Assembly (NCBI GenBank): GCA_965223985.1
Contig: OZ245030.1
Coordinates: 3,151,720-3,215,719, forward strand
Direction of reading: 5' to 3'
Origin: Candidatus Poribacteria bacterium
GTDB lineage: Bacteria; Poribacteria; WGA-4E; PCPOR2b
Length of the DNA: 64,000 bases
Part shown: piece after piece, positions 33,335 through 58,428 of the stretch
How positions within the stretch are numbered: the first letter of the stretch is position 1
Layout of the letters: every line of letters starts with the position of its first letter
The notes under the pieces: model-generated
Told to the model about the DNA's origin: nothing
Database searches by the model: none
What the model saw: the letters and a program-made list of their open reading frames with translations, nothing else
Made by a program: the position numbers and the translations under genes

Positions 33335-33400
33335 CGCACCATATATATACTGTATGTTTTTCGTTTGTTAGGTTGGGTTAAGATCAACCCAACCTACAAA
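33335..33400. repeat. REP-like elements
   Basis: ttaggttgggttaagatcaacccaacctacaaaacttc. Confidence 0.5.
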
Positions 33401-33404
33401 ACTT

Positions 33405-34313: not shown

Positions 34314-34339
34314 GATTTGCTATGTCTGTGTGTTTAAAC

Positions 34340-34800: not shown

Positions 34801-34856
34801 TGCGCGGAATATTATGCCATATTTTAAGGACATATACCAACGAAAACCACAAAGAG

Positions 34857-38260: not shown

Positions 38261-38510
38261 TTACAGTCTATAAAAAAAGGGGTGAATTACGAAACAAGAA
38301 TAATACGTTTTATATGAATTGGGGGAGGATGTCAAGGCGGGGGGATTTTATGATTTTTTTATGAAACCGGATTCGGGGGATTGCGTATTTTTGGGTACGA
38401 TGTCAGGTTTAGGATCTCGTTGTCGATTTCGGCAACTGGGTCATGCAGAGAAACCAAGTTTCTGACAAAAACTCGGTTTCCGGTATTCCGTGAAACCTGC
38501 GAAATAAGCA

Positions 38511-38546
38511 TTGACAGATGTTAAAATCTGTTGTACTATACAGCAG
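38511..38546 (+). promoter_or_regulatory. Near-consensus sigma-70 promoter P1 upstream of giant gene 1
   Basis: TTGACA, 17 nt, TACTAT (ttgacagatgttaaaatctgttgtactat). Confidence 0.5.
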
Positions 38547-38601
38547 GTTTCCGCGATGGATGCCGGGGACGAAAACCGCGAAACATGTCGGAAGAAAAGT
38601 C

Positions 38602-38636
38602 TTGACAAATTGCGGAATCTGTTATATTATGGTATT
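38602..38636 (+). promoter_or_regulatory. Near-consensus sigma-70 promoter P2 upstream of giant gene 1
   Basis: TTGACA, 17 nt, TATTAT (ttgacaaattgcggaatctgttatattat); leaves a ~350-nt leader before the ATG at 38990. Confidence 0.5.
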
Positions 38637-38817
38637 GTGTTGCGGCAGGATTGCGCGGCGAATATGTCTCGCGTTCGGTCTGCCGGCACGACTTACGGCT
38701 TCATTCTAGACAGCTATTCTCTAAGGGGATCAACAAATGAAACCCTCCAGAGACACGTTTTGAGTGAGGACAACATTTCAGTCAGTGTGTGGAGGGTGTT
38801 TCAACCCTCTCGAGTGA

Positions 38818-38860
38818 GTCCCGGAACCCGATGTGAGCGGTTTCGGGGTTTTGTTGATTC
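38818..38860 (+). promoter_or_regulatory. Leader hairpin with a motif shared with the giant gene 2 leader, followed by a U-run (possible attenuator)
   Basis: cccggaacccgatgtgagcggtttcgggg then ttttgttg; the motif CCG(A/G)AACCCG(C)ATGTGAGC(C/G)G also occurs at 46416-46436. Confidence 0.35.
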
Positions 38861-38989
38861 TGTTATGATTTAGGAAAGGAACAACTACCAATTATGGATA
38901 GTTCAACTAAGGCTTGCGAATCTGGCAAGCGAAACAAAATCAAATTCAATCCTTCAACATACAAACATGCAAGGAGGAAACATACAGTC

Positions 38990-41900
38990 ATGTTGAGTAG
39001 AATTTCGAAAATGAGTGTTTTCGGTATCGTTGCGCTCATGCTCGTTCTCGGGCTGGCGTCGGACGATGCGCAGGGACGGGATCCGGCAGCTGGAACATAC
39101 GTGGTAACAATGCAAACAGAACCATCTGTGCTGCGCGCAGCAGACACAGCTACGGTGACGTTTACCCTCACTGTCGACCTTCGGGAAAACAAGTCTACTC
39201 AAGACCCAATCCCGGAGGATCAGGCTAACGCTGATACGGCGGAGCGTACGGTCACCATTAACATTCCGGGAGGGTCGACAGGGTGGTCGCCCAACCCGGT
39301 TGCGTTATCCGGAGAGACTGCGGTGGACCCGGGCGAGGTGAGTTTCGCTAAAACTACTGTTATCACCGACAACACTCTCGCGTGGATTTCCGGGTCTAAC
39401 GCACGGAAGCTGAATATCAAAATTGTCGCAGGAATTGACGGTAATGGTGTATATACCATCGTATACGCAGCGGCGACTGTGCCTAACCGCAAAGGCGATA
39501 GCTACAGATTTTTAATTGACAACGCAGACACCAAAGACATTCCGTATAGCGTTGATTACGCGACGAGCGGATCGGGAACGGTCACGATGAGTCCGTACAG
39601 CCCGTTGGACGCGATTGTTGGCGGCGATGCTGATGATAAAAACGCTTGGAACGGCAAATATGTTTTCAATAGCAAGACGGCGTTAAGACCGTTGAAGTTT
39701 ACTTACAAAGCGGCGGGTTCTATGCCAAAGGATTCAACCGTTTCAATAGTTATGACGGGTGGATTCAGCCTTCATGGAAAGAGCAGTTCCGTAATTTCCG
39801 TGAGCGGTTCCGGTTCTCCAGAACTTTCTACTCCCGTAGATACCGTTGTAGTAGATGAAAGTACTACGGTAGTCGCTACAGTGAAGGCAGAGGGCGGGCT
39901 GGGAGCCGGCCAGTCGATAGCCATAACCATTAGGGAGCTTGTGATGCCGGAGGTCGTAGCGGCAGCCGATGCCCCGGATACGGATAATACCATTACAGTG
40001 ACTTCTACGTCGGGTACTACGAACTTTCAAGACGATGCCCGCCCGGTTGCTATTGACAATGCTGCTGGAGATGTCGACAAAGGTTTATTCGAGTTCTACA
40101 CGACTGCAGCGCCCGGGACCGGTGAAATGACGATTAATTCTGGCGGCGACCCGATTCAAAACATGCGCGTCGTGGAAGGCACTGACCTCGGGACATTGGT
40201 ATTTGGAATTACGGGCACGGACGGTATGGGACCGGACGCCAAATTTCAGATTAAGGTTCCGGGCGCCCCTTGGCCCGAGCCTATTAAGGCGTCCGGCACG
40301 ATTGGCGTTGTTGCCGATTCGGAAGCCGCCGGACACACGGCGAATGCGGAGATTGGCACTGGCGGTGCGGCTCGCACACTCAGCGGAAGCCTTACAACTA
40401 ATACACTTCAATCTGGTACAAATAATCCCGAGGCTAATGCAAATTTGAACGATACTGATAACGGCGGGATTACGTACCGAGCCGGCGCGATATCGGTACA
40501 CGGCAAGCATGAGTTCATGCTTTTGACCAGTTCCGGTCCGCACGGCGCCACATTGAAAGAGAGGACCGGCGGGGACGGGGCTGACGCGTACCCCCGGTAC
40601 ATTGAAGTCACCGCGAAGCACGAAAGCGGTACGTTCGTCGTTAGAGAGGGCGGATCGCCGTTAGTGCAGTCAAAACCCGCGAACGAGCACACGCTCCAGT
40701 TAGTCTTTAAAGCCACTGGCTACATGCCGGCAGGGATGGTTGTGTTTAGGTTCCCGGATAGATGGAAAAGTCCTCGCCGTGACGTCGCTCCGCCGTTTGA
40801 AGTGGGAGAGGTGAGGTTTAGCAATAACGCGACGTTTATTGTCAACACCGACGGGACCATCACTGCGACGGGGGACTGGCGAGATGAGGAAATTGTAGTT
40901 ACCTACAGAGGCATGGTTCCGGGCGAGGCGGGTACCCCGCCCGAGTCACACACTTTTACCGTGGATGCATCATCGTTCGGAGGTGATGCTAGCTTCCCGG
41001 CCCCGGCGGCCCGACCGGCTGCTTATTCCCATACGATTGGTCCCAATCTCGCGGCGGATGGCAGCGGCACACTCGCGATTGAGCCGAAGAATGCGAATGC
41101 CGGCGAGACGATTAATTTGAATATAACTTACACAGCCGCGGGCACGATGGAAGATGGATCAGTTGTTGAGGTTACCATCCCCGAAGGCTGGCCTGATCTT
41201 GATGCGCCTGGCACATCAGTCGAGATCGGCGCAGAGGGCATCGTGGCAACCTTGAATGAGTCGAAGAGGACGCTGACCGCTACAACTGTTGATGATATGG
41301 TCACTGATTCCAAACTCGTGTTCAACGTCACGGGCGTTACAGCGCCGGCTGTCGGCAGAGGTTACCAGTTCACCGCGCAATCAAAATCGCACGGAGAACT
41401 AAAGAGCCTTTCGTCAAGGCAAATCTCCGGTGCAGTCATCAATATCAGCAACGTGGCTGCTGGTTCCGCCCTGCTTACGCTAGTGAGGGAAGACGGAACG
41501 ATGGCGGAATCTGCCGAACCCCTGGATTCGTTTGAAACGGCCAAAATCACTTTTACGGTTGGCTTGGCGATGCAACCCGGGGCGGAGGTTAGGGTCACGG
41601 TTCCGGATGGCTGGACGAATGAACCTTTCCAGGACAACGGCATGCCGCGTACGAGCGGTGAGGTTACGCTTGAAGGGAAGGCGGATCTTAGCGTCGAGGG
41701 AAGCGTGCTGATCGCCAAGGCGAACGCTCAGATTAACCCTGGCGAAACAGTGACGTTCACCTACCATAAGCCGACCGCGCCTGAAGGCGAAACAACATCG
41801 TCTTTCGATACACAGGCGTCAATTGTTGAAGGCGGGGGTTTACTGGCGGTTGCAAATCAGCAAACAACTGTGGTCGTTAGAAGCAAGGTCACCGCGTTGA

Positions 41901-44900
41901 CGCTTACCGCCGAATCGGCGACGAGCGTGTTCGTAGGCGATCCGGTCAAACTCACCGTTAGCTCGGATGCGCGTGCTCCGGTTCGCGGTCTTGCGGTAAC
42001 GTTAGCGACCGATCCGGCTGATACAGGGATGTTCTCCCTGACCGAAGACGGGACAGCCACCACTTCGGTGACGATTGAGGATTCGGCTACTACGATGTCC
42101 ACCACGTTTTATTACATAGGCCCAAGTTCCATTGATACGGCATCTGTCGATGTCGAGTTGACGGCGACGGCTATGGTGGATGGCGAAGCCGTTGCATCTG
42201 ATCCCGTGGAAGTTAATGTCAGGTCCACGATTAGCATGCTGCAGGTTAACGGCATGCATGATGATCCGGAACCGGTGGAGGTTGGTGCCGCAATTACGGT
42301 GACAGCGATCGGTAAAGACGGCAGAGCCACCGTAACGGTAACTGACGCTGAAGAAGAGGCGGTCGAGTCACTAACAAATCTTGGACTTGATGTCGACTCC
42401 GATGCTACTGACGTACCGGCAGGTAGTGTTGCTTACAAGCGTAAAATTGAACTGCCGGACGATCTTGCCGAAGGCGATTACACCGTAACCGTGACTATTG
42501 ACGGCGTTTGGTTGCCAATAGAGATCAGTGTGGTGGCAGCCAGAGCACAGGTTACCGAATTGACGCTCACCGCGTCAGCGGATAATTTCTTCGCGGGCGA
42601 GTCAATCACAGTCACTGTTGCATCGGATGCTCGTGCACCCGTTGACGGTCTTGAGGTGACATTGTCGACAGATCCCGCAGATTCGGGAACGTTCTCCGAT
42701 CCCGAAAGCGAGGAGACCCTCAAGGGAGGGATGGTGACGATTGAGGATGCTGCGGATTCAATGTCTGCAGATGTTAATTACACCAACTCTGCGAGGGGGA
42801 CTTTCATGCTGACGGCGACAGCTATGGTTGATGGCGAGGCCGTTACATCTGACCCGTTGGAAGTTACGGTCAACCCCACGATTACCGTTCAGGTTAACGG
42901 CATGGACGCACCGGAAGCGGTGTTGCCCGGCGCCACAATTAGTGTGACGGCGAGCGGTAAAGCAGGCGGAGGCACCGTAATGGTAACCGACGCTGAAGGC
43001 GAAGCAGTCGAGTCATTAACAGGGCTTGGACTTAATGTCGACGCCGATGCTGCTGACGTTCCCGAAGGCAGCGTTGCCTACATGCGCGACATTGAACTGC
43101 CCGCGGATATTGCTGACGGCACTTACACAGTTACCGTGACAATTGGCAGCGAGTCGGTGCCAGTGATGTTGGAGGTCATGACACCCACAGAACCGGTCAC
43201 CGCTATCGCGATTGTACCGGATCCGACCAGCGTGTTTATCGGCGAGGACATTGCCGTCTCCGTGACGCTGTGGAGCGGTGCCGAAGAAGGGGCTGCCTCG
43301 GCAGCTATGGTCATCAACCTGACGGATGGCGAAGCCGGCGGTAGTTTCACCGATACCGAAGGCAATGCTATCACTTCGGTCACTATAGCCGTTGGAGGTT
43401 TCGACGCGTCTGCGAAATATAGCAATGCCAGCAGAGGCGAAATCACGCTGACCGCGACGGCAGCCGATGAGGCGTTGGAACTTGAGCCGGCAACCGCCGA
43501 TGTCACGGTCAAGCCCTCGATTTACAATTTTGAGGTTAACGGCACGGACGAGCTAGGCCCGCTGACGGCTGGCGTCACAATTACTGTGTCGGCGACCGGA
43601 AAAGAAGGTAAAGCCACCGTAACGGTAACTGACGCGGACGGCGAAGGGGTTGTGCCATCGAAAGGGCTTACAGGACTTGATGAAGAGCCCGATGAAGAGG
43701 GCAACGTTGATTACACGCGTAAATTTGACCTACCGGTCGTTCTTGCCGATGGCATTTACACAGTTACGGTTACCATTGCCGGCGAGACTGCCGCAATGGC
43801 AATCGAAATCATAAACGACCAATCAAAACCGGCGTTGAGCAACCAGAAGGTATTGCCCGACACGGTAGCGAGCGGCAGTGTGATTACGCTTAGAATCGAC
43901 GTGAGTTCTAATGTGCCTAATCCCGAGTTGTCAGTGATGGCGGATGTCAGCGAGATTGATGCCGACCAAGCCGCTGTTCAGTTGACGAAACTGCCCGGGA
44001 CGGAGAGCACCTATGCCAACATCTACGTGGTCAAAAACAGCGACCCGCAAGACGATGGCGAGAAGACCATCACGTTCATGGCGACTGATAGGATTGGCGG
44101 CGCAAGCGAAATGACTGTGTCCACGTCCTTGAAGAACGACGTTACGCCTCCGGTGCTGAGCGATCCGACCGCTATGCCTTCACCAGTGGTGAACGGTATG
44201 GACGTTACCATTTCGGTTAGCAGTGAATCCGGTCTCACGGTCACGGCAGATGCTTCCGAAATCGGCGGCGGCATGGTGACGCTGACCGAGGGTACGGTTG
44301 ACGACGGTATGGATGCCAACGGCAACGGTAATGGTATGGATGCCAACGGCAACGGTAATGGCATGGATGCCAACGGCAACGGTAATGGTATGGATGCCAA
44401 CGGCAACGGTAATGGCATGGATGCCAACGGTAACGGTAATGGCATGGATGAAGATATGGTCGGCACGGGCATGTATAGCAGCGACCCGATCACAGTCGCC
44501 GTTACTGAAGGTGGCGATCAGACCATCACCGTCAAGGCGACCGATGCCTCTGGTAACGAGGCTACCATAGACGTAACCGTCACGGTTGAGGTGCACGAGG
44601 TGACAAGCGTTACTTTCGTTCGCACGGGCGATACGGTTACGGTAACCACGATGGGCACCGCTGGATTGAAAGCGGAGTTCAGCGTCTTCAATGAAGCTAT
44701 GAAGATTATCGGTGAGAAGGCGATGACGGAATCGGATGATGGCGGAAGCTATACAGGCAGTTTCATCATTGTTGTAGACGCCCATCCCGCTGGTGAGTAT
44801 TGGATTTCTAGCAGCGTGGGTACTGCTGCCAGTATGACCGCAGAAGGTGCACTCACGATCGACCACGGGGCGCATTTCACCCTGTCAATCGGCGCGGGTA

Positions 44901-46102
44901 CGCATATAATCCATATCCCGTTAGATGTTAAGCAGATTAACGGCGAAGATGCGTTGATTGACACCGTCGGCGACCTATACGATGCGCTCGGCGAAGCGGT
45001 CAACTACATCATTACGGTCGGCGACGACGGTGGATGGAAGACTTACCTCGGCGATATGAGCGCGGGCACCGCAGCGGACGCGGCAATCGGCGACGATACC
45101 GGTTTGATTGTGGTGATGTCCGACGCTAAGACGCTTGAACTCGTTGGCGATGCGCTAGGTACCGCCGGCGCTTCACAAATTAACATTGACGTGGGGAACA
45201 ACCTCGTCGGTGTACCGCTTGATCCGGTGGTGGATATGATGATTAGCGCCGCGCTGGTCGAAGGTGTTAGTTCAATCTCGGTCTCCAAAGCCGATGGAAT
45301 GGGATTCCACACGATTAGGGAACCCGGCGACGACGGCGACGGTCCTGTCATAGGCGGCGTCGGCTATCTAGTTTCCTACATTGGAGCGGAACCAGCCAGC
45401 ATCCCGATATTCGGTTCAGCATGGGAGAACGACGGATCGGTTTCGGCAGCTCCTGCAATCGCCTTCAGCGGTTCGCAGACGCCGGTGCTGTATGTTGAGG
45501 GCGGCGTTATGGACGAGTTCGACATGTTGTCACGAGTTCCTGAACTCCGTGTCACTGTAAAGAACCTGTCTACAGGCGCTTCGCTCGACACCGTTCTCGG
45601 AACGGAGCAGTCTGCGACAGCGTACAGCGGTACGTTTGTTGAATTGAGCCGCCACGCAGCGAAGGCTGGCGATGTGCTGGAGATAGTAGCGCATTCACCG
45701 AACCCGTACGTTGGTGTTCGACCGGTTCAGCAGATTGTTGTTAGCGCGGAAGAGGTGTTGACGAGCCGTATCAGCTTGCCCGACCTGGAAGTCTACGAGA
45801 TTCCGTCGGAGAGCGAGCTGTTGGCTAACTACCCGAATCCGTTTAACCCTGAAACGTGGATTCCGTACCGGTTAGCGAAAGCTGCCGAAGTGACGTTGGA
45901 TATTTATGACACCAACGGACGCTTGGTACGGACCATTGATATCGGCTTCAAACCAGCCGCTGTGTACGAATCACGTGCATCAGCGATTTACTGGGATGGC
46001 CGCAACAACTACGGTGAACGCGTTGCCAGTGGCACGTACTTCTATCACTTAACTGCGGGCGATGATTATGCATCAACTCGCAGAATGGTGATCCTGAAGT
46101 AA
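38990..46102 (+). CDS. Giant secreted repeat protein (2370 aa) with Ig-like repeat modules and a T9SS-type C-terminal sorting domain
   Basis: AAGGAGG RBS then the ATG at 38990 (12-nt spacing) and signal peptide MLSRISKMSVFGIVALMLVLGLA. Four ~210-aa internal repeat modules (TALTLTAESATSVFVGDPVKLTVSSDARAPV... / TELTLTASADNFFAGESITVTVASDARAPV...). C-terminal CTD NYPNPFNPETWIPYRL...LDIYDTNGRLVRTI...WDGRNNYGERVASGTYFYHLTAG...MVILK. Confidence 0.85.
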   Translation: MLSRISKMSVFGIVALMLVLGLASDDAQGRDPAAGTYVVTMQTEPSVLRAADTATVTFTLTVDLRENKSTQDPIPEDQANADTAERTVTINIPGGSTGWSPNPVALSGETAVDPGEVSFAKTTVITDNTLAWISGSNARKLNIKIVAGIDGNGVYTIVYAAATVPNRKGDSYRFLIDNADTKDIPYSVDYATSGSGTVTMSPYSPLDAIVGGDADDKNAWNGKYVFNSKTALRPLKFTYKAAGSMPKDSTVSIVMTGGFSLHGKSSSVISVSGSGSPELSTPVDTVVVDESTTVVATVKAEGGLGAGQSIAITIRELVMPEVVAAADAPDTDNTITVTSTSGTTNFQDDARPVAIDNAAGDVDKGLFEFYTTAAPGTGEMTINSGGDPIQNMRVVEGTDLGTLVFGITGTDGMGPDAKFQIKVPGAPWPEPIKASGTIGVVADSEAAGHTANAEIGTGGAARTLSGSLTTNTLQSGTNNPEANANLNDTDNGGITYRAGAISVHGKHEFMLLTSSGPHGATLKERTGGDGADAYPRYIEVTAKHESGTFVVREGGSPLVQSKPANEHTLQLVFKATGYMPAGMVVFRFPDRWKSPRRDVAPPFEVGEVRFSNNATFIVNTDGTITATGDWRDEEIVVTYRGMVPGEAGTPPESHTFTVDASSFGGDASFPAPAARPAAYSHTIGPNLAADGSGTLAIEPKNANAGETINLNITYTAAGTMEDGSVVEVTIPEGWPDLDAPGTSVEIGAEGIVATLNESKRTLTATTVDDMVTDSKLVFNVTGVTAPAVGRGYQFTAQSKSHGELKSLSSRQISGAVINISNVAAGSALLTLVREDGTMAESAEPLDSFETAKITFTVGLAMQPGAEVRVTVPDGWTNEPFQDNGMPRTSGEVTLEGKADLSVEGSVLIAKANAQINPGETVTFTYHKPTAPEGETTSSFDTQASIVEGGGLLAVANQQTTVVVRSKVTALTLTAESATSVFVGDPVKLTVSSDARAPVRGLAVTLATDPADTGMFSLTEDGTATTSVTIEDSATTMSTTFYYIGPSSIDTASVDVELTATAMVDGEAVASDPVEVNVRSTISMLQVNGMHDDPEPVEVGAAITVTAIGKDGRATVTVTDAEEEAVESLTNLGLDVDSDATDVPAGSVAYKRKIELPDDLAEGDYTVTVTIDGVWLPIEISVVAARAQVTELTLTASADNFFAGESITVTVASDARAPVDGLEVTLSTDPADSGTFSDPESEETLKGGMVTIEDAADSMSADVNYTNSARGTFMLTATAMVDGEAVTSDPLEVTVNPTITVQVNGMDAPEAVLPGATISVTASGKAGGGTVMVTDAEGEAVESLTGLGLNVDADAADVPEGSVAYMRDIELPADIADGTYTVTVTIGSESVPVMLEVMTPTEPVTAIAIVPDPTSVFIGEDIAVSVTLWSGAEEGAASAAMVINLTDGEAGGSFTDTEGNAITSVTIAVGGFDASAKYSNASRGEITLTATAADEALELEPATADVTVKPSIYNFEVNGTDELGPLTAGVTITVSATGKEGKATVTVTDADGEGVVPSKGLTGLDEEPDEEGNVDYTRKFDLPVVLADGIYTVTVTIAGETAAMAIEIINDQSKPALSNQKVLPDTVASGSVITLRIDVSSNVPNPELSVMADVSEIDADQAAVQLTKLPGTESTYANIYVVKNSDPQDDGEKTITFMATDRIGGASEMTVSTSLKNDVTPPVLSDPTAMPSPVVNGMDVTISVSSESGLTVTADASEIGGGMVTLTEGTVDDGMDANGNGNGMDANGNGNGMDANGNGNGMDANGNGNGMDANGNGNGMDEDMVGTGMYSSDPITVAVTEGGDQTITVKATDASGNEATIDVTVTVEVHEVTSVTFVRTGDTVTVTTMGTAGLKAEFSVFNEAMKIIGEKAMTESDDGGSYTGSFIIVVDAHPAGEYWISSSVGTAASMTAEGALTIDHGAHFTLSIGAGTHIIHIPLDVKQINGEDALIDTVGDLYDALGEAVNYIITVGDDGGWKTYLGDMSAGTAADAAIGDDTGLIVVMSDAKTLELVGDALGTAGASQINIDVGNNLVGVPLDPVVDMMISAALVEGVSSISVSKADGMGFHTIREPGDDGDGPVIGGVGYLVSYIGAEPASIPIFGSAWENDGSVSAAPAIAFSGSQTPVLYVEGGVMDEFDMLSRVPELRVTVKNLSTGASLDTVLGTEQSATAYSGTFVELSRHAAKAGDVLEIVAHSPNPYVGVRPVQQIVVSAEEVLTSRISLPDLEVYEIPSESELLANYPNPFNPETWIPYRLAKAAEVTLDIYDTNGRLVRTIDIGFKPAAVYESRASAIYWDGRNNYGERVASGTYFYHLTAGDDYASTRRMVILK
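44306..44440 (+). repeat. Five near-identical tandem copies of a 27-bp unit (third-position T/C alternation) inside giant gene 1, encoding (MDANGNGNG)x5
   Basis: gg(t/c)atggatgccaacggcaacggtaat x5, in frame. Confidence 0.8.
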
Positions 46103-46116
46103 ATGTTCGCCGCAGA

Positions 46117-46165
46117 TTCACCCTTTAGCTGCTAGGCGGGCTCTGTACTGCTTAGCAGCTAATTT
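46117..46165 (+). terminator. Candidate intrinsic terminator of giant gene 1
   Basis: agctgctag-(15 nt)-cttagcagct stem followed by aattttttgtttt. Confidence 0.5.
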
Positions 46166-46187
46166 TTTGTTTTAGTTTGAAATCACC

Positions 46188-46215
46188 CCCCTCAGTCCCC
46201 CCTTGGTAAGGGGGG
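46188..46215. repeat. Copy of the CCCCCTTGGTAAGGGGGG hairpin repeat
   Basis: cccctcagtccccccttggtaaggggggagg; same family as the 26820-27015 array. Confidence 0.5.
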
Positions 46216-46269
46216 AGGAGAACAACAGTTCCAACTATTTAAAAAATTGCGGTACGAGAGAATAAACAA

Positions 46270-46305
46270 CTTTCAAACTGGTTGTTACTTGTGTTATAAT
46301 AGATA
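46270..46305 (+). promoter_or_regulatory. Candidate extended -10 promoter for giant gene 2
   Basis: tttcaaa ... TGtTATAAT (ctggttgttacttgtgttataatag). Confidence 0.4.
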
Positions 46306-46469
46306 TGTTTCGACGGCTTTATAAAACATAATTGGTCTGGTGTAAAATTTTTTGTTGTTTGTTTCATGAATTTGCTTTATGAAGTGTTTTGATTGGTCTT
46401 GGTCGGGCTCACTTTCCGAAACCCGCATGTGAGCCGAATTGATGAGCGAAATTTTTGGGAGGTTGAATA

Positions 46470-49400: not shown

Positions 49401-52400
49401 AAGGTGCGCGTCACCCTCGGCGAGCAGGCTGCGAGGGAACAGGAAACCGAAGCAGACGGTTCGTATCAGGAGACCTTCTTCATGCCGGGCGAAACGGATG
49501 CGAGCGTTTACGACACCGTGGTAATTCAGGCGGTCGACCGCAGCACCGGCGATTCGGCGTTTGAATCCATGCAGTTGGCTTCGCACCACGTGTTGGCGAA
49601 GCGTCTTATGTTTAACGTGATGCTGGTTCCGGACGATGAACCCCCGGTCGCCGTGGCAGCAGTGAGCCAGCGGTTCCTTGACACCGAAGAAGTCTCGACG
49701 TTCGACGCGAGCGGTTCAACCGACAACGTCTTTATTGACACGTACGTATGGGATTACGGAGACGGCACGAGCGGCAGCGGCGCGAAAACGACGCACGCTT
49801 ACGACCGAGCGGGACTGTATGTTGTAACGCTTACGGTTACCGACCTTGCCCGAAACGCGACTACGGTCTCACGCGAAATCTTTGTGAGCACGGTACGGCT
49901 CGGCGGAATTTCAATCAACACCCGGCACGCGCGAGAGGTTCTTGACCAAATCATCGGCTTGGCAATCGCTAAGACCGACCTTGCTCAGCAGATGGGAACG
50001 GAAGCGCTCTTGCAGATGATGCGCGCTAATCCGGCGATTCAAGCGGCTGTGGCTGAAGCGATTGGCGGGGCATTACCGCCCGGCTTAATACCTATGCAGC
50101 TACTCAGGGAAAATCTGCCGCTGATTTTCGAGCAGTACGAAAACATTGACTTGGAAAACTTCGGCAACGCAGTGACCGCACGTGTCGACGCGAGCGGCGG
50201 TATCCTGGGATCAGCAACTCCGGGATTCGGCAGAGTCGTGACCGGCGAGAAGTTGGACCTCTACCTTGCGACACCGCGTGCAGATGTTGGCAGTGTCACG
50301 TTTAGGTTCGACGAAGCTACAACCGATGCGGACGAGGTCATCGACAGTCTGCCGCACACGTTCCAGTTGGAAGAGGAGCAAGCGATTCTACTGCTGCCCT
50401 CATGGCCCGGCGTGCGGGATGGAATGGACGGCGTGTTCTCAACGGTGACGTTGATGTTGGCGTCTGAAGAGTTGCCGTCGGCATACCACAATCTAATTTC
50501 GAGAAATGCCTGGTCATACCGCGAAACGAGCGATTATCAGGCTGCGTCCATGAGTCCAAGGACGATTAACGGAAAGATTGTATGGGATGTCCAAGCGGAC
50601 ATTGAACCCGGAAAGATATATTACTACTATTACGCAGTCGAACTCGCGTATCCCGTCACACTGAATTTGGGCGAGGGTCAGGAGAGCATGGAACTCTCGC
50701 AGTACGCATTGCCAGACCCGCGCAACCTTCAAATTCAGGATCGCGGCATAGCTGAGGCGGTATTCACACCCGAGCTTCAGGAAGCGATTGCACCGCTGCT
50801 GAACCCGATACTTGCGGGCATTATCAGTGGACAAGCTGTTACGTTCGAGGATGTTATCGCGAGCGTGACGCCCGAAGCGTGGGTGAACCTGTTGGGCGCA
50901 GCATTGAATTCAGCAACTCCGCTTCTTGAAGAGATTTCAATGACGATGGATACGCAGATGATTTCCGTGTTCACCGTTCCGCTGGTGAACGAAGCGCAGT
51001 CGCTCTGGCACACGAGTATTGATTTATCAGTGTTCCCGGACGGCGTTCACACAATTGATGCGAACGCGTTTGATTCGCTTGGAATTCAGATAGATAACCG
51101 ACCGGTTTTCGGTAAGACCTTCACGTTGGATCGGACTGCACCAGTTTACGATGTGTCGGCTGCACCGGCTCAGAATTCGTCGATGTATATGCGCGACGAC
51201 GGCGTATTGATTGCGACAGGATTGCCGCCCGCTGGCGAGGGCAGCCCGATGGCGACGCTTCAACTGATGTCAAGCCCGAACGGCGATGTGAGCGATGCGG
51301 CTGAAGGGTTGTACCAGATTATTCGGCACAGCGATGACGCCGTTGAACAAGCGTCACAAACTTGGGTCAACATTTTCGCGAGCGAATTGGCACCGATGTT
51401 CCAAGGGCTAACGCCTGAAGACATCACCGCATTCTTGGTTACGTTCCCGAATCTAGCGACGTTGAACGCGCCTCTGAGTTTGGACGCGCCTGGGATTGAG
51501 ACGTTCCTTCCGGAACAGATGGAGATGTTGATTCGCGGTGCTAACAGCCAGCCCGAACTGATTGTCGGAGAATACGGGCTGCGTTTCATCGCACGGGATT
51601 CCGTATTTAATATGTCAACGGATACCGCGCCGATACGGTTGAACATTGTTCCACCGGATGCGGATACCGCGATGGTTGTGCGGATATCGCTCGGCGATTG
51701 TAACGGCGACGGCGACTCAGACGACCTGTATGAGACAGGCGCTCCTGCGGACATGATTCTGTTCTCGGACACGCCGAATGTGGTGTTGACCGCAGAGATT
51801 ATGAAACAGGTTCACCCGATAACCTCAATCCTGTTCCAGTATAGGATGGGGGATGAAGGCGAATGGATGGATGTCGGTACACTTGACGCAGATATGGTCG
51901 CCGGCGCTGCTGTCGGCTCACAGTATGATGCGGCTTGGAGCATTGACAACTTGGGCGCGATGATTCAGGCAGGTATGCCGGTAATGGTTCGCGCGGTTGT
52001 CACGAATGCACTCTCCATTTCTGATACTGAGGCTGGCGAAGCTGCAATAGCGGTGAAAGACCATCCGTGCCCGATCGAAACTGAAGTTCACGACCTTGCA
52101 CACAGCGTTACCGACCGTAACCCCGACAGCAACGCGCCGCTGGGCGCGATTATGCTTCAGGCAATCACCCGCGAGCTAACCTCACCTCCTTCGATGAGCG
52201 TAGTTTTTGAGGCGCGCCGTATGCAAGGTGAGGAGTGGATGTCAGTCGGCGAAACGGCGATAGCGGATAGCGTTGTCGAAGAGTCTATCACCGATGCACT
52301 TGAAGAGGTGTTGGAGGAGGTTATCGACGGCGAGCAGACCGCAGTGTTAGTTCCGACGCGGCGTGTATGGTCGTTTGAACTTGATAGCACAACACTAGAA

Positions 52401-55400
52401 GACACAATTGCGGTGGGAGACCCCGCTGAACGCGACGTGACGTTGGACGAGAACCCTTACGTGCTTCGTGCAGCCGCAGTTGACGAGAATGGCACACGAT
52501 ACGAATCGGTGGAGGCGCTCTCGCAGAGTTTCTCGGTCGATAACATTGACGATGTACCGCCGCTCACAGGAACGGCGATTCTTCAAGTTGCGGATGCCGC
52601 AGGCGTTATTGAGGCAATCGAGAGCATCTTTACCGTCGGCGGTATCGTTGACGAGAGCGTAGATGCGCCAGTTGCGATGGTGATGTCAATGCCAATTGCG
52701 GATCCGAACACGTACAGTCGGGTCGATTTGCTGATTAACCGCCGCAATGACGACGGCAGCCTGGGAGACTCTGTGGTTGAGACGGCGTTCGAGATGGGTG
52801 AGGAGAATTACACCACCACGGCTGATGTCTCAACGCTAGAGAACGGCGCGTATCTCTTCCAAGCACTGGCAATGGACGAGGTTGGGAATCAAGAGGTACG
52901 AGATCTCGTGTTAGCGATTTCGGTTGATGTTGCGAACTTCATTCCGCCGCCCGATATCGACCTCAATGGTCAGACGGTTGAGGCAGTCACGGAAGCGTAT
53001 CCGGACGGGTTCCCAATCGCTCGGACGTACGAGCTCGCTGTGACTGGCATTGCGCTTAACGCAGGAGACATCGACGTTCTCGTTGATGGGCGTTCCGCGA
53101 ACGAATTGGGCGCACTCACGGTTACTACGGTTGAGGAAGGGGCGTCGAGCACGTTCGGGCTGGCGATTGACACTACGCTGCTTGAGGAGGGCTTGCACGC
53201 ACTGGATCTACAGGTTACGAAACGCAACGGCAGCATCACGTTTGTTCTGGCGCCGCTGTTTGTAGATAACATCGCGCCCGAGTTGGCAGTGGCTTCGCCG
53301 ATAGCGAACGACGAGGTAAGCGCGTTGCCTTCGATTCATGCAGTATATAATGACGGCGCTGGTGCGGGCATTGAGCTCTCGACAGTGTTGATGAGCATGG
53401 TTCGACTGACGCCGCCGGATATGTCGGCGGTCGAGATTGATGTGAGCCAAGTTATGACAGATTTGACCGACCTGGTCCATACCCGCCGCGATATGCTGCC
53501 GGCTGGCGTATATCGGGTGAGCGTAACGGTGTCCGATATCGTAGACAACGTTAGCAACATGTCGGTTGACTTTACGGTCGTTACGACGTTGCCGTCAGTC
53601 TCAATCCTGTCACCGATGCCGGGTCAAATCCTTGACGTATCGTCGCCGTACATCAGCGCGGTTTACACAGGCATAGGCGCAACCATCACATCGTTCACGC
53701 TTGACGGAGCTGAAGTCGATGATGCGACGATGAGCGACAATCGTTTGGAGTATACGCCTGACGCCTTGGCGGATGGCGACCATACGGCAGCGATTGCAAT
53801 CACGGATGACGAAGGCAATACGATGAGCGACACTGTGAAATTCACGGTAAGGACAGCAGATACGACGCCGCCGCTGATAACGGAGGCGAGTCCGCAAGGA
53901 GTTGTGAAATCTGCGTCCGCTACGCTGTCCGTCGCAGCCTCCGATGAAGAATCCGGGATTGGTAGCGTGTCATACGCCATTGATGACGGTGCAGCGGTTG
54001 ACGGAACGACTCGAAACGTTAGCGGTTTGGCTCCAGGAACTCACACCGTTGCTGCGGTTGTGACAAATGGCGCCGGTCTGTCGAGCACGTTCAATTGGAC
54101 GTTCACCGTTGAATTGGATACGACGCCACCTGTGATTTCGACTGTTGCGCCGCAGGGCGTTATCAAAGAAGCCTCTACCACGGTTTCAGCCGCGGTCGGC
54201 GATGAACAATCGAGTGTCACGCGAGTCACCATGTCGGTAGACGGTGCTGCGGCTAGAACCGCGTCACTACGGGATGGGCGTGTAAGCCGCGTGGTGAGCG
54301 GACTTACCCCTGGAACGCACAATATTACCGTTTCTGCGACGAGCGCTGGCGGTACTGCGACGCATACTTGGAGATTTACGGTTGAACTGGATACCACACC
54401 GCCTGTGATTACCCGTGCTAGACCGCAAGGCGTTATCACGTCAACTTCTGTAACAATTGCGGCAGTGGTGACAGATGAGGAATCTAATGTCACAAGTGTT
54501 ACGATTGCCCTTGACGGCGGCAGAGCTACAGACGTGACACCAGCAGCGAACGGCCCGGTGAACCGTAGGGTGACAGACCTGAATCCCGGTCTGCACGGCA
54601 TAGAACTCGTCGCAACAAGCGCTGGCGGCACCGCGACGCATACTTGGACGTTTAATGTTGACTTGGATACGACCCCGCCGGAGGTTTCGAGTACATCTCC
54701 GCACGGCATTGTGCGCGTGGAACAGCCGCAAATCTCTGTGGCAGCGAGCGATGACCGCGGCGGTATCCTTGCAATCGACATCACCCTTAAAGACAGCGAT
54801 GGTAAAGAGCTCAGCGGTCGAACCGCAGCAAGTTCTGACACAACTTCAGCGACCTTTACACCGTCGGGACGCCTGACGGGGGGGACGTACTCAGTTGATG
54901 CCACCGTGAAAGATAGAAGTCAGAATACGGCATCCGCGAGTTGGAGTTTTACCGTCGAGTTCGATACGGTGCCACCCAGCATCACGGTTGTCGCGCCGCA
55001 GGGCGAGTCCCGGATCGGCGAGGAACGCAGACCGATAATTACGGCGAGCTACACTGATAATGCAGCCGGTGTTGACGCGGATTCCGTGGTACTGATGCTT
55101 GACGGAAACCCGGTCGTTCCGACGGCAGTGTCCACGAGTCAGGTAGTTTACACGCCGCCCGCGGACCTCGATTTCGGTCGGCACACCGTTCGGTTGGAGG
55201 TCTCCGACCTCGCAGCGCCGAACGTGAATACGGCGATGCACGAATGGAGTTTCGTCCTTGAGGACGGTAAGGGACCTGTGTTCCGCGGCGTGCTGCGGAA
55301 TTACCCGAATCCGTTCAAGGATAAAACGAGCGTTTCCTTCACCCTTGCACGTGAATCGACAGTATCCATCGAGATTTACGACATCACGGGTCGGCTTGTC

Positions 55401-55571
55401 AGGGTCTTGGCGCAAGACGAGGTTCGAGAAGCCGGTGGTAATGAATTTCCGTGGGATGGGAAGACATCGACAGGCGAGGTGCTGGCTCGCGGCGTTTACT
55501 TCGGTCAGATAATGGTGACTAGCGAACCGACGCCAGAGTTTATTGTGGTGAGAATGGCGCTGTTGCGCTAG
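46470..55571 (+). CDS. Giant secreted repeat protein (3033 aa): Big-1-like, Cna-B/transthyretin-like, PKD and Ig-like repeats, T9SS-type C-terminal sorting domain
   Basis: GGGAGG RBS then GTG at 46470 and signal peptide. Invasin-like Ig repeats (ADGESTAEITVSIESGDG...DNGDGTYTAVYTAP). About 8 repeats of GTV..DG..V.GV.V.V..........TD.NG.Y.VTFF. A PKD domain (FDASGSTDNVFIDTYVWDYGDGTSGSG...YVVTLTVTD). Six ~95-aa Ig-like repeats (DTTPPVI...PQGVI...). C-terminal CTD NYPNPFKDKTSVSFTL...IEIYDITGRLVRVL...WDGKTSTGEVLARGVYFGQI. Confidence 0.85.
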   Translation: MFNIMSKGKLVWFLILVTLASGLMMSVAQSVHAQSVSLFILNGTLTDADGVALVGYTVEAPIAEESTFGSGVSITDEQGNYSIEYNDLSGRVSVGDSIEVIIKDPDGNVVGETSYTVTSADISPRIGRATHDIAIQMSGLTLDLINVQLPADGESTAEITVSIESGDGPVIGDTVTITADMGSVGEVTDNGDGTYTAVYTAPALVINEPATDTITVSSDTTGDSVTAVITLEPVPTDIRVSVEPSAFIAGSGETGAVSITVNRGGNAVVDADISLVVRRADGGADSGAATDVTNNGDGTYSATFTAPNTAGQIDFSATDAVSGASGMASVNVKAGPAAAISVTAAPTSVSSNGRAVITAAVADASGNGVGGLTLSRTAESGTVGEFSEGSTVGSYSAAYTAGTVEAEGGDTVTVSVDDLSGQVTINLTPVPPKAVEILVITGTVNKQDGTGPVSGVNVEVTVGDMTQPPAQTDSNGNYTVTFFTPGGVAAREGESVTVVVTDDAGEERGRDESVLTREELGEGNSADIERNVNTDILARTTSLVVTGSVFREESEVPIDDVFEITVMNTTRGTEMSGMTDENGMYVLTFFGTDVVAETGDEIVVTASREGSEWSSPPHSLSSEDVEAGRAMVNVPTDIKASALALVVTGKVLFDDGTIAVGAGVTVTSINDGRGLEATGETNADGMYSVTFFTGDVVAETGDVIVVTAVHDGDAVGSTERTLSSAEVDAQRAEGVDVVTSIKASTTTLAVTGTAYYEGSMIPVGGGQTVTVVNNMNGMESTGTTEEDGTFVVTLIAIEGVAAETGDTLTITVTSEADGSGSIEHTLSAMQIDAQRAMVDVPTNIKATSSTFVVSGTAYLEDGVSGAPHDLTVKVMNETQGINAEGVTVPGGGYIVTFLETDAAAVKTADELTFDVLVMAADETPVGETSVTLSSADVVAQRIDGIDITTSLRADPTNEFVVYGTVRDPSGNIVGAGVKVRVTLGEQAAREQETEADGSYQETFFMPGETDASVYDTVVIQAVDRSTGDSAFESMQLASHHVLAKRLMFNVMLVPDDEPPVAVAAVSQRFLDTEEVSTFDASGSTDNVFIDTYVWDYGDGTSGSGAKTTHAYDRAGLYVVTLTVTDLARNATTVSREIFVSTVRLGGISINTRHAREVLDQIIGLAIAKTDLAQQMGTEALLQMMRANPAIQAAVAEAIGGALPPGLIPMQLLRENLPLIFEQYENIDLENFGNAVTARVDASGGILGSATPGFGRVVTGEKLDLYLATPRADVGSVTFRFDEATTDADEVIDSLPHTFQLEEEQAILLLPSWPGVRDGMDGVFSTVTLMLASEELPSAYHNLISRNAWSYRETSDYQAASMSPRTINGKIVWDVQADIEPGKIYYYYYAVELAYPVTLNLGEGQESMELSQYALPDPRNLQIQDRGIAEAVFTPELQEAIAPLLNPILAGIISGQAVTFEDVIASVTPEAWVNLLGAALNSATPLLEEISMTMDTQMISVFTVPLVNEAQSLWHTSIDLSVFPDGVHTIDANAFDSLGIQIDNRPVFGKTFTLDRTAPVYDVSAAPAQNSSMYMRDDGVLIATGLPPAGEGSPMATLQLMSSPNGDVSDAAEGLYQIIRHSDDAVEQASQTWVNIFASELAPMFQGLTPEDITAFLVTFPNLATLNAPLSLDAPGIETFLPEQMEMLIRGANSQPELIVGEYGLRFIARDSVFNMSTDTAPIRLNIVPPDADTAMVVRISLGDCNGDGDSDDLYETGAPADMILFSDTPNVVLTAEIMKQVHPITSILFQYRMGDEGEWMDVGTLDADMVAGAAVGSQYDAAWSIDNLGAMIQAGMPVMVRAVVTNALSISDTEAGEAAIAVKDHPCPIETEVHDLAHSVTDRNPDSNAPLGAIMLQAITRELTSPPSMSVVFEARRMQGEEWMSVGETAIADSVVEESITDALEEVLEEVIDGEQTAVLVPTRRVWSFELDSTTLEDTIAVGDPAERDVTLDENPYVLRAAAVDENGTRYESVEALSQSFSVDNIDDVPPLTGTAILQVADAAGVIEAIESIFTVGGIVDESVDAPVAMVMSMPIADPNTYSRVDLLINRRNDDGSLGDSVVETAFEMGEENYTTTADVSTLENGAYLFQALAMDEVGNQEVRDLVLAISVDVANFIPPPDIDLNGQTVEAVTEAYPDGFPIARTYELAVTGIALNAGDIDVLVDGRSANELGALTVTTVEEGASSTFGLAIDTTLLEEGLHALDLQVTKRNGSITFVLAPLFVDNIAPELAVASPIANDEVSALPSIHAVYNDGAGAGIELSTVLMSMVRLTPPDMSAVEIDVSQVMTDLTDLVHTRRDMLPAGVYRVSVTVSDIVDNVSNMSVDFTVVTTLPSVSILSPMPGQILDVSSPYISAVYTGIGATITSFTLDGAEVDDATMSDNRLEYTPDALADGDHTAAIAITDDEGNTMSDTVKFTVRTADTTPPLITEASPQGVVKSASATLSVAASDEESGIGSVSYAIDDGAAVDGTTRNVSGLAPGTHTVAAVVTNGAGLSSTFNWTFTVELDTTPPVISTVAPQGVIKEASTTVSAAVGDEQSSVTRVTMSVDGAAARTASLRDGRVSRVVSGLTPGTHNITVSATSAGGTATHTWRFTVELDTTPPVITRARPQGVITSTSVTIAAVVTDEESNVTSVTIALDGGRATDVTPAANGPVNRRVTDLNPGLHGIELVATSAGGTATHTWTFNVDLDTTPPEVSSTSPHGIVRVEQPQISVAASDDRGGILAIDITLKDSDGKELSGRTAASSDTTSATFTPSGRLTGGTYSVDATVKDRSQNTASASWSFTVEFDTVPPSITVVAPQGESRIGEERRPIITASYTDNAAGVDADSVVLMLDGNPVVPTAVSTSQVVYTPPADLDFGRHTVRLEVSDLAAPNVNTAMHEWSFVLEDGKGPVFRGVLRNYPNPFKDKTSVSFTLARESTVSIEIYDITGRLVRVLAQDEVREAGGNEFPWDGKTSTGEVLARGVYFGQIMVTSEPTPEFIVVRMALLR

Positions 55572-55671
55572 TAATCCGAAAGGATTCGTTGGTGATTATG
55601 GGAATGGGTAGATGCCATTCCCGTAATCACCATAATGAACAGTAGATACGCAATACGTTAAGGAGGAGAAC

Positions 55672-56610
55672 ATGTTTCAAGGGAAGCACAAGTTGTTTTA
55701 TAGCGGAGTAGCGTTTATGGCGCTCTTACTCGCCATAGCGCCGATGTGTCTCGCTAGCGGCAACGCCGCCCCATATCTACGCGATGGCGTTGGCGCACGG
55801 TCGATCGGTCTAGGCGGCGCTTTCACAGCCATCGCCGACGATGCAACCTCCACAATCTGGAATCCTGCGGGCTTACCGGCGACTGAGACTCTAGATTTCA
55901 CACTGTCACGGGTGCCTATGGCGTTCGATAGCACAAAGAACTTCATGGCGATCGTAAAAGGGTTAGGCGAGAAAAGCTCGATAGGTTTTTCGTGGATGAA
56001 TGTTGGCGTTGACGATATCATGGAGGTCAGCGCGGACAACGACATCACGGGTAGACGCTTTAACTACGATTCGAATGCGTTGGCGTTATCGTTCGGACAT
56101 GCGCTGGAGAGTTTTAATCTTGGGGCGAGTGTGCGCGTGCTATCCGATGCGGTTGGACTGGATGCCTTCGATGGTGTGACGAGTTTTGGCGGCGTGGATG
56201 TGGGTATGTTGGCGCGACCCGGTACATCGTTGAGCTACGGCTTGGCGGTAAGAAATATCGGCGGTACGGTCGGTGACGAGAGCGTTCCCATAATCGTGGG
56301 TGCTGGCGTTGCGTACCATCTGTTGCAAGGGGACCGTGCGACGGTTGCAGTTGATATCGAGCACGAAATCGGCATTTTGGATGAGAGTCCGACAAGCGTT
56401 CGTATGGGTACGGAATATCGAATTGCGCGAACCTTCGCGGTACGCGGCGGTACACAGGTGTCCAAAGATCGTCAAGCTCTGTTTGTTGGGTTTGGAGTTG
56501 ACGTTGGCGCGCTCCAGCTTGATTATGCGCTAAAAGCGGGCGAACGTGCGACTCGCAGCTTGCAAGACGCCGGCGAAACGCATTATATTTCACTGTCTTA
56601 CGGTTATTAA
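55672..56610 (+). CDS. FadL-family outer-membrane beta-barrel protein, PorV/PorQ-like (T9SS-associated), paralog of the 14949-15905 gene
   Basis: Signal peptide, hatch motif GARSIGLGGAFTAIADDATSTIWNPAGL, beta-strand-rich body ending with an aromatic residue (SLSYGY). Encoded 100 nt downstream of the giant CTD cargo gene. Confidence 0.65.
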   Translation: MFQGKHKLFYSGVAFMALLLAIAPMCLASGNAAPYLRDGVGARSIGLGGAFTAIADDATSTIWNPAGLPATETLDFTLSRVPMAFDSTKNFMAIVKGLGEKSSIGFSWMNVGVDDIMEVSADNDITGRRFNYDSNALALSFGHALESFNLGASVRVLSDAVGLDAFDGVTSFGGVDVGMLARPGTSLSYGLAVRNIGGTVGDESVPIIVGAGVAYHLLQGDRATVAVDIEHEIGILDESPTSVRMGTEYRIARTFAVRGGTQVSKDRQALFVGFGVDVGALQLDYALKAGERATRSLQDAGETHYISLSYGY

Positions 56611-56717
56611 ATCATTATTAGACGCAAGCGAATTTCATCGCAACTCGGCGTGAAAGGCGAGCTTACGTTTTTATATAACAAATCATTCAATGTATTCAAG
56701 CAAGAGGAGAAAGCCCG

Positions 56718-57614
56718 ATGAAGATGATGAGATCCACCTTTAGCTTGGCGCTTATTCTTTATCTTTGTGTTTTTTTGACGGGTGCGCCGTTCGTACTGAC
56801 CGCTACCGCAAAGATGACGCCGATAGACGTGGATGAAGCAACGATGATGTACGAGATTAAAAAGGGCGATACGCTCTGGCATCTCGCCAAGAATTATCGA
56901 AATGATGCGCTGTTGTGGATGGAATTTAAGAAATATAACATCTTTACTAATCCGGATCTGATTTATCCGAAAGAAATGCTGCAGGTTAAGAGCGGTTGGG
57001 GGTTCCCCGGCGACGAGCCGCCAATGATGGAAGAGGAGGAGACGGCAATGATGGAGGAGATGCCGTCCGAAATGGACCTCCTCAAGATGAGCATGGATGA
57101 GAAATTGGATTCATTGTCAAAGATGGTCATGAAACTCAAGCATAAGGCAGGTGAGTCGGACAAACATCACAAGATGGTTGGTGATAAGGTCAGTAAAATC
57201 AAGGGTATGCTTAAAGCGCATAACAAAGCGCATGACAAAGCGCTTAAAGGACTTAACGGCGCTATGATGTCGCACGCCGAAGAGACCAAGATGGGGCTGT
57301 CTAAGGTGAAGGGCAAAATTAAGGACTTGAACAAGGACCTGAACGCAAGGGCAGACAGGTTGCACGAGCACCAGGAAAAGACGATGAAGATGCTCGGTGA
57401 GACCACAGAAGCCATGAACAGCGAATTCGCAAAGAATGAAAAGCGAGTCAACGACCTCCAAGCGGGCGTGGATAAAATCGACTCGGAACTTCAGCAACGG
57501 AGTGGTGAATACAGGGATTCGACTAAGGCAGAGCGGACGTTGGGCGCACTAGCCGTCTTGGTTGGCGGGATAGCAGTGTTTACGCTGAATTCGCTCGGTG
57601 GGTCATTAGACTAA
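56718..57614 (+). CDS. LysM-domain coiled-coil protein with a C-terminal TM anchor
   Basis: Signal/TM, then a LysM motif (YEIKKGDTLWHLAKNYRNDALLWMEFKKYNIFTNPDLIYPKEMLQV), a Met/Glu-rich linker, a long Lys-rich coiled coil, and a terminal hydrophobic helix LGALAVLVGGIAVFTL. Confidence 0.65.
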   Translation: MKMMRSTFSLALILYLCVFLTGAPFVLTATAKMTPIDVDEATMMYEIKKGDTLWHLAKNYRNDALLWMEFKKYNIFTNPDLIYPKEMLQVKSGWGFPGDEPPMMEEEETAMMEEMPSEMDLLKMSMDEKLDSLSKMVMKLKHKAGESDKHHKMVGDKVSKIKGMLKAHNKAHDKALKGLNGAMMSHAEETKMGLSKVKGKIKDLNKDLNARADRLHEHQEKTMKMLGETTEAMNSEFAKNEKRVNDLQAGVDKIDSELQQRSGEYRDSTKAERTLGALAVLVGGIAVFTLNSLGGSLD

Positions 57615-58332: not shown

Positions 58333-58428
58333 ATTGATTGATTTCCGGGGTCGTTTCTGTTACTCTAGTTGGCGAACTTCGAGCGACGTATACGAAATTG
58401 TAAAGGCGATGATGGTGGAATACCTCTC

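Follow-up and report, generated by a model that had tools for sequence, protein, structure and literature searches.

Can a bacterium outside Bacteroidota display giant proteins through the C-terminal domain (CTD) known from secretion systems of type IX (T9SS), and which partners would it use? This question is raised by four genes in a 64,000-nucleotide stretch of DNA from a Candidatus Poribacteria bacterium (GenBank assembly GCA_965223985.1, contig OZ245030.1, positions 3,151,720–3,215,719 of the forward strand), which is called the window below and whose own coordinates are used throughout. The genes, all on the + strand, encode a giant CTD protein of 2402 residues when counted from its first ATG (g1, 38894–46102), a second one of 3033 residues (g2, 46470–55571), a 312-residue barrel of the PorV/PorQ family (55672–56610) and a 298-residue LysM protein (56718–57614). 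The four open reading frames (ORFs) were recovered where a first-pass annotation, made by a model from the sequence alone, had placed them, and each product has an N-terminal hydrophobic segment. Since M33 of g1 (at 38990) sits before its hydrophobic signal-like segment, the 2370-residue version is the likely mature ORF. The suspicion that the host is not a member of Bacteroidota proved right, as Poribacteria are placed at NCBI among the candidate phyla, outside the Fibrobacteres–Chlorobi–Bacteroidetes (FCB) group. On balance, we favor a reading in which g2, the barrel and the LysM protein (46470–57614) constitute a triad of cargo, carrier or anchor, and cell-wall tether.

The giant proteins, the barrel and the LysM protein

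Relatives of the locus were collected by scanning one genome per species, which gave 80 loci, nearly all of them from metagenome-assembled genomes of Candidatus Poribacteria. The nearest relative among these loci is 89–90% identical at the protein level, and none of the retrieved contigs is identical to the window, the closest of them being 98% identical at the nucleotide level. Profile scores are given below in bits, together with the curated cut-off of each model.

The first-pass annotation had assigned a T9SS-type CTD to both giants, and this assignment is borne out by the curated models. The CTD of g1 (45803–46099) scored 38.7 with TIGR04183 (cut-off 23), 29.0 with PF18962 (Por_Secre_tail; cut-off 27) and 35.1 with FlgD_ig (cut-off 27); the corresponding values for the CTD of g2 (residues 2936–3032; 55275–55568) were 24.8, 36.1 and 30.5. 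Both domains reach the last residues of their proteins and share the ending NYPNPF...GRLVR...WDG...G.YF with a K/R-terminal tail. The domain of g2 is T9SS type A-like, and the C-terminal 130 residues of the protein also match the model of the PorU C-terminal region with 71.9 bits. It is the best-conserved segment of g2, being 51–54% identical to its orthologues as compared with approximately 40% for the remainder.

Following a signal-like N-terminus, g2 consists of variable CarboxypepD_reg-like and Invasin_D3 repeats (residues ~35–1050; the Invasin_D3 repeats score 49.1 bits with Pfam), a PKD domain (1057–1132), a conserved chain of beta-sandwich domains (1150–2450), Big_13/Big_3_3 repeats (2450–2930) and finally the CTD. 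The PKD, Ig-like and Big-1-like repeats described earlier were hence found, Invasin_D3 being Big_1-like, while the “Cna-B-like” repeats were not confirmed as such; the N-terminal repeats of approximately 100 residues are flagged as CarboxypepD_reg in the precomputed Pfam matches of g2 relatives. Residues ~1150–3033 align in 60–78 of the 80 loci with an identity of about 40%. Structure prediction, which the annotation had proposed for the repeats, was performed for the conserved core: an AlphaFold2 (AF2) model of residues 1150–2349, based on a 25-sequence alignment and having a mean predicted local distance difference test (pLDDT) score of 66.6, showed a string of beta-sandwiches with two helical inserts, whose domains resemble the Ig, FN3 and macroglobulin (MG) types. 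Foldseek matched this core to cytokine-receptor ectodomains, complement MG domains, a mastigoneme, the Deinococcus HPI S-layer and the Aureispira grappling-hook protein, and found no enzyme fold in the model. A PDB sequence search with g2 matched the PKD domain and an invasin-like stretch only. From this domain composition, we infer that g2 is a structural fibre or adhesin. A PorU-like sortase was also considered for g2 and rejected, as neither Peptidase_C25 nor another enzyme domain was found with Pfam, NCBIfam, the PDB sequences or the AF2 core model.

The two giants had been regarded as one tandem unit, which could not be upheld, because, of the two, the 3033-residue protein alone is conserved alongside the barrel. 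The likeness between g1 and g2 is confined to the CTD (38% identity over 78 residues), and partial relatives of g1 were found in three loci only (L009, L010 and L026). Between the two genes lie a terminator-like hairpin with a 15-bp stem and a T run (46125–46172, +) and a promoter-like site ahead of g2 (46272–46300, +), both of which are consensus matches only. Taken together, these features place g1 outside the conserved unit; it is a lineage-specific extra cargo protein, and the conserved module comprises g2 with the barrel and LysM genes. The g1 product contains a BslA-like domain, repeats of approximately 190 residues and a (GMDANGNGN)5 repeat. The last is encoded by an in-frame 27-bp repeat present in 5.3 copies (44309–44450) and is likely a length-variable linker.

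The 312-residue barrel scored 102.1 with the PorV/PorQ family model NF033709 (cut-off 90) over residues 32–310, and its named homologues are all entered as [quoted passage not shown]. A PorV/FadL-like barrel directly after the giants, as annotated, is thus present at the family level. The motif GARSIGLGGAFTAIADDATSTIWNPAGL occurs in this protein and is largely invariant across 18 homologues. When a profile of 18 homologues was searched, the sole significant relative of solved structure was PorV of F. johnsoniae (6h3i_F, E = 3.1e-7), and the alignment passes through the GxGxRxxGLGGA...WNPAG motif. No match was obtained to the PorP/SprF model TIGR03519 (cut-off 90.55), and neither this barrel nor the 318-residue barrel described below matched FadL/Toluene_X (PF03349) at E ≤ 0.01 with Pfam. 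An AF2 model based on 18 sequences contains 14 strands with low confidence (mean pLDDT 53.6; below 50 for the N-terminal 90 residues), for which Foldseek ranked PorV (8gl6_F and 6h3i_F) first, followed by TbuX, TodX and FadL.

The LysM membrane protein reported after the barrel was likewise recovered. Its LysM domain scored 28.0 with PF01476 (cut-off 20.9) at residues 45–90 (56850–56987), the N-terminus is signal-like, and a C-terminal membrane helix lies at 57540–57596. The LysM domain and both terminal segments are conserved in 79 orthologues, of which 74 keep the C-terminal hydrophobic helix. The middle part is Met/Lys-rich and helical, and is conserved in length and variable in sequence.

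Gene order in Poribacteria and beyond

For the synteny counts, ORFs were called in each of the 74 Poribacteria loci having a clear barrel, and were searched with the window proteins and with a locally built hidden Markov model (HMM) of the window’s C-terminal domain. An ORF ending in a CTD was located immediately upstream of the barrel in 73 of the 74 loci, with a median length of 2586 residues, many of these giant ORFs being clipped by the 10-kb flank of each locus; the lone exception begins at the barrel. The LysM protein follows the barrel immediately in 72 loci, and the whole order of giant CTD protein, barrel and LysM protein is kept in 71, down to a barrel identity of 39%. The cargo-then-barrel logic to which the first-pass annotation had drawn attention therefore holds within Poribacteria, and it recurs in unrelated lineages as follows.

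Two contigs of Candidatus Eisenbacteria encode the barrel as a fusion protein, in which thrombospondin-type repeats and a C-terminal OmpA-like domain for peptidoglycan binding follow it; on one of these contigs (L084), an ORF of more than 3239 residues ending in a CTD lies directly upstream. A Gemmatimonas contig (L083) carries a barrel fused to TPR repeats, with a 1430-residue CTD protein two genes upstream. A HMMER search with the barrel gave 17,322 cluster representatives at E ≤ 1e-3. Among the best 150 family representatives, 37 are 400–1361 residues long, with the barrel N-terminal and a C-terminal extension, and ten of these 37 were sampled, giving OmpA in two, TPR in five and a CHU_C-like domain in one; OmpA and TPR domains are also those of which PorE is made up. 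Five distant relatives of the barrel were furthermore checked in their contigs: four of them (L103/L104, L105, L106 and L107) have a CTD-ending gene directly upstream according to the local HMM, with products that include 3358, 4994 and 1258 residues, and the fifth is on a short contig, where the barrel stands behind a toxin–antitoxin pair. These upstream CTD genes and fusions across lineages suggest that a CTD protein followed by a PorV-family barrel, to which a wall-binding or TPR module is often attached, is general for this subfamily. It was also observed that the products preceding the OmpA- or TPR-fused distant barrels (L103/L104, 1–7776; L105, 1–7574) reach 3358, 4994 and 5004 residues, and that L105 contains two consecutive ORFs, both of which end in a CTD.

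Proposed mechanism and its alternatives

In the proposed mechanism, g2 would be exported via Sec by means of its predicted signal peptide, and would form a long non-enzymatic fibre or adhesin of about 25–30 beta-sandwich domains at the cell surface. The neighbouring PorV-family barrel, with its predicted 14 strands, would bind the C-terminal beta-sandwich domain of g2 by means of its extracellular loops; it would serve as a carrier dedicated to g2 and probably as its lasting outer-membrane anchor, as PorV does for PorU, PorQ for PorZ, and PorP or SprF for type B cargo. The LysM protein would be fixed to the inner membrane through the helix at its C-terminus and reach the wall with a helical stalk of approximately 180 residues, so as to tie the barrel anchor to peptidoglycan, like PorE for PorP or the OmpA-like fusions in other phyla. 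A plugged barrel of 14 strands is too small for a folded protein of 3000 residues, and thus would not be the export channel itself; crossing of the outer membrane would need a large translocon, SprA-like or otherwise, encoded outside the window.

Several observations weigh against this mechanism. The barrel falls far below the equivalog models, scoring 28.1 with PorV (NF033710; cut-off 250), 47.4 with PorQ (NF033711; 220) and 64.5 with PorV2 (NF052325; 325), and hence it should not be called “PorV”. The AF2 model of the barrel, owing to its low confidence, has a supporting role only. Family memberships, domain make-up, gene order and fusions are observed here, whereas the contacts of the CTD and of the LysM protein with the barrel and the surface location of g2 are what we infer from them and by analogy, and the proposed role of the LysM protein as a tether draws on the OmpA and TPR fusions, a LysM fusion being absent from that comparison. 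Furthermore, the conserved gene order also takes in cytoplasmic AccA-like and phospholipid genes, a 196-residue AccA-like gene occurring within the next five genes in 67 of the 74 loci, so that synteny alone is no proof of a functional link. Finally, neither the window nor the scanned neighbourhoods yielded SprA/Sov, PorKLMN (GldKLMN), PorU, PorZ or any other translocon, motor or sortase gene; in these neighbourhoods, 30 ORFs next to the locus, its paralogues and the non-Poribacteria relatives gave only generic TPR and OmpA matches. The giants do bear T9SS-type CTDs, but for this reason they may not be called T9SS cargo.

The missing core genes agree with an earlier report on single-cell genomes, in which many TIGR04183 proteins were noted in Poribacteria and Por structural genes were not found, and the secretion pathway, it was said, “remains to be revealed” (Kamke 2014, PMC3909097); no other literature linking Poribacteria with T9SS was found. 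If SprA, PorKLMN and PorU are truly absent, the locus could be a self-contained display system independent of T9SS, which uses another translocon and in which CTD sorting has PorV-family barrels and wall tethers as its ancestral or minimal core. The presence of at least three PorV-family paralogues in Poribacteria fits this explanation as well. However, the genomes of 2014 came from single cells and were incompletely assembled, and the models used to search them were older ones, so that divergent T9SS homologues could have been missed; moreover, the size limit of the 14-stranded plugged barrel applies here too, and no candidate for an alternative channel adjoins g2. We hence consider such a system rather unlikely. 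A related and equally doubtful speculation is that CTD cargo, a PorV-like barrel and a peptidoglycan tether (LysM, OmpA or TPR) formed an older self-standing anchoring system, possibly present in other lineages too, that was later elaborated into the T9SS of Bacteroidota. Should a divergent T9SS exist in closed Poribacteria genomes, the locus may instead be a T9SS cargo and anchor cluster in a new phylum.

Two further explanations were considered. The CTD might be merely a structural FlgD-Ig-like module without any sorting or anchoring signal, the barrel being, for example, a biogenesis factor or receptor of the fibre; the FlgD_ig scores, which rival or nearly rival those of Por_Secre_tail on both giants, point in this direction, as does the tail of the second module, which passes no T9SS CTD model. 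Against this, the domain always lies at the extreme C-terminus and closes with the K/R-rich strand that T9SS CTDs typically have, it is the most conserved segment of g2, and it is the sole feature common to the proteins ahead of these barrels, which are unrelated in other respects; this explanation is accordingly improbable. Alternatively, the barrel could be a FadL-type importer of hydrophobic compounds that is unrelated to g2, has inherited its position and works with the downstream lipid genes. TbuX, TodX and FadL do occur among its fold matches, its N-terminal NPA motif is common with FadL, and the AccA-like gene and a CDP-alcohol phosphatidyltransferase gene are conserved downstream; nevertheless, the barrel passes the PorV/PorQ cut-off and lacks a Toluene_X/FadL match, the CTD-then-barrel order recurs in the paralogous module and in lineages with different flanking genes, and the barrel is fused to OmpA and TPR and not to lipid enzymes. 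An importer of this kind seems very improbable.

The triad of g2, barrel and LysM protein hence remains our preferred explanation. The locus provides the first concrete candidates on the machinery side for the CTD proteins of Poribacteria, namely a PorV-family barrel and a wall-binding partner that are syntenic throughout the phylum with the largest CTD protein, and two further PorV-family paralogues are additional candidates of the same kind. Poribacteria are dominant sponge symbionts, and g2, being conserved and non-enzymatic, qualifies as a candidate main fibre or adhesin of their surface, by which host or particles are contacted.

The second module and other features of the window

The first-pass annotation had noted the same pairing at 14949–17833, on the − strand. 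The two genes and their conserved order were ascertained, whereas neither the barrel nor the tail reaches the curated thresholds. The upstream gene (15902–17833) encodes a 643-residue secreted protein with an F5/8 type C (discoidin) domain (PF00754, 55.7 bits) and a FlgD-Ig-like tail, which scored 18.4 with FlgD_ig (cut-off 27) and 23 bits with the PorU C-terminal region; no match to TIGR04183 or to the type B CTD was obtained at E ≤ 0.01, and the tail was found by the locally built CTD HMM only (E = 1.2e-14). The 318-residue product of the next gene (14949–15905) is a diverged PorV/PorP-like outer-membrane barrel. Both barrels had been expected to score against barrel families: the 312-residue protein passes NF033709, as described above, and the 318-residue one does not (46.9; cut-off 90), its scores being 22.2 with TIGR03519 (90.55) and 23.6 with TraF_2 (cut-off 25). 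The two barrels are 24% identical to each other (E = 1.5e-8, tblastn).

A third gene (12537–14936, −), missed by the first-pass annotation, encodes a secreted protein of 799 (probably 780) residues. The module is tightly packed from 17833 to 12537, with a 4-nt overlap between cargo and barrel genes followed by a 12-nt gap, and its three-gene order recurs in 10 metagenome contigs, with barrels as little as 45% identical. The family of the 799-residue protein is conserved and Poribacteria-specific, and comprises approximately 60 homologues of 44–99% identity, of which the eight members with a named source are all entered as “hypothetical protein [Ca. Poribacteria]”. The protein gave a weak match to the SlpA_C barrel (23.4; cut-off 35) and no sequence relative in the PDB by either single-sequence or profile search; it may be a large barrel of the outer membrane that carries an Asp-rich loop. 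As judged from sequence, the second module is a real but more diverged three-gene unit.

A third PorV-family paralogue of Poribacteria, of 364 residues, scored 199.8 bits on the family model and adjoins a DUF6785 gene in close relatives. Two segments of the window, 59176–59232 and 59994–60050, translate to the last 19 residues of this paralogue with 79–84% identity. Lying in a duplicated region, these fragments are all that the window retains of the paralogue, and they probably derive from a gene copy that was lost or rearranged. Three DUF6785 + DUF6784 paralogues of approximately 645 residues are present at 22049–23995, at 60913–62847 and from about 63640 to the window end; the two complete copies score 484–493 bits with Pfam.

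Downstream of the LysM gene, a degenerate AccA-like protein of 196 residues (57742–58332, +; ACCA 20.1 bits, below the cut-off) is followed in conserved order by a CDP-alcohol phosphatidyltransferase (58369–59064, +). The AccA-like protein is without a hydrophobic segment and cytoplasmic, resembles a truncated carboxyltransferase alpha subunit and is probably inactive. The two genes probably constitute a separate cytoplasmic and lipid unit.

The giant cluster is flanked on both sides by repeat arrays. A repeat of approximately 127 nt (reference copy 35689–35815) is present as 10 or more nearly complete direct copies of 84–100% identity, with diverged inverted copies interleaved, and makes up a non-coding array of 2.7 kb that closely precedes g1 (within 32044–38217). 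Partial copies lie at 59614–60568, within the segmentally duplicated region at 59.0–60.9 kb. Near the arrays are an IS200/Y1-transposase-like gene (34857–35399) and a weak match to a REP-associated tyrosine transposase (32300–33184). Between two of the DUF6785/DUF6784 genes, a 35-bp unit is repeated 16.3 times head to tail with 93% matches (62962–63531); the unit has GGGACTATCGCCT in common with the repeats at 59–60.9 kb, and a related contig, L001, carries a longer version of the array. Clustered regularly interspaced short palindromic repeats (CRISPR) were considered for this array and rejected, as the copies lie head to tail without spacers. Two adjacent genes on the − strand (7440–9175), encoding 259 and 312 residues, gave weak TafC fimbrial matches (37 and 27 bits against 410). 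Scans of the window for Rfam families and tRNA genes found none.

Comparison with known systems

The nearest known counterpart of the triad is found in the T9SS of Bacteroidota. The loops of PorV bind type A CTDs at the SprA translocon and carry them off, and type B cargo has alternative carriers, which then anchor it (PMC10994853). An attachment complex is composed of PorU and PorZ with PorV and PorQ (PMC8754138). Furthermore, the peptidoglycan-binding PorE, the barrel PorP and PG1035, which has a type B CTD, form a complex, while SprF holds SprB; the porP-like genes adjoin those of their cargo, and often porE-like genes too (Gorasia et al. 2022, PMC9143113). The PorE–PorP–PG1035 and SprF–SprB systems thus resemble the proposed triad in having a surface protein held by an uncleaved CTD, a small outer-membrane barrel whose gene adjoins that of the cargo, and a periplasmic partner that binds peptidoglycan and whose gene adjoins that of the barrel, and SprB exemplifies that the cargo can be as giant as g2.

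Cargo-adjacent carrier barrels with wall tethers are hence already known; what differs here is the PorV-family barrel, the type A-like tail and the LysM domain. Unlike PorP and SprF, the Poribacteria barrel belongs to the PorV/PorQ family, and the CTD of its partner scores as type A, so that the idea of a dedicated carrier and anchor, which has so far concerned type B cargo and PorP-like proteins, would extend to type A-like tails. PorE is a lipoprotein with TPR, propeller and OmpA_C parts, whereas the wall binder of Poribacteria has a LysM domain and a helical stalk, with a membrane helix at its C-terminus. The host differs as well, being Poribacteria, for which the T9SS core is unreported.

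The order of porU and porV, a gene for a large CTD protein and then a barrel gene, resembles that of g2 and its barrel. PorV itself (6H3I/8GL6; LptO in P. gingivalis) is homologous to the barrel by the profile comparison given above, is its top fold match and shares the NPA motif of the N-terminal hatch. The barrel is shorter, with 312 residues against about 370–400 in PorV, which implies shorter loops, and it appears to be dedicated to one cargo, while PorV is a general carrier of type A proteins. Since g2 gave no match to a C25 peptidase domain, it is not a PorU.

The FadL, TodX and TbuX channels resemble the predicted fold of the barrel, with its 14 strands in the low-confidence model and a putative N-terminal hatch bearing the NPA motif. 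They differ in that no FadL-family match in sequence was obtained for the barrel, whose context is surface-protein cargo and not a catabolic or lipid-uptake operon. Inverse autotransporters (intimin/invasin, type Ve) offer an analogy only, although the same three elements recur in them, namely a periplasmic LysM domain, an outer-membrane barrel and an extracellular Ig rod of the Big_1/Invasin_D3 type that serves adhesion; an IAT_beta domain was not detected in the window proteins with Pfam. There, these elements lie on one chain with a 12-stranded barrel and a passenger C-terminal to it, whereas in Poribacteria they are distributed over three proteins, the barrel is predicted to be of the 14-stranded FadL/PorV type and the cargo would be held by its C-terminus.

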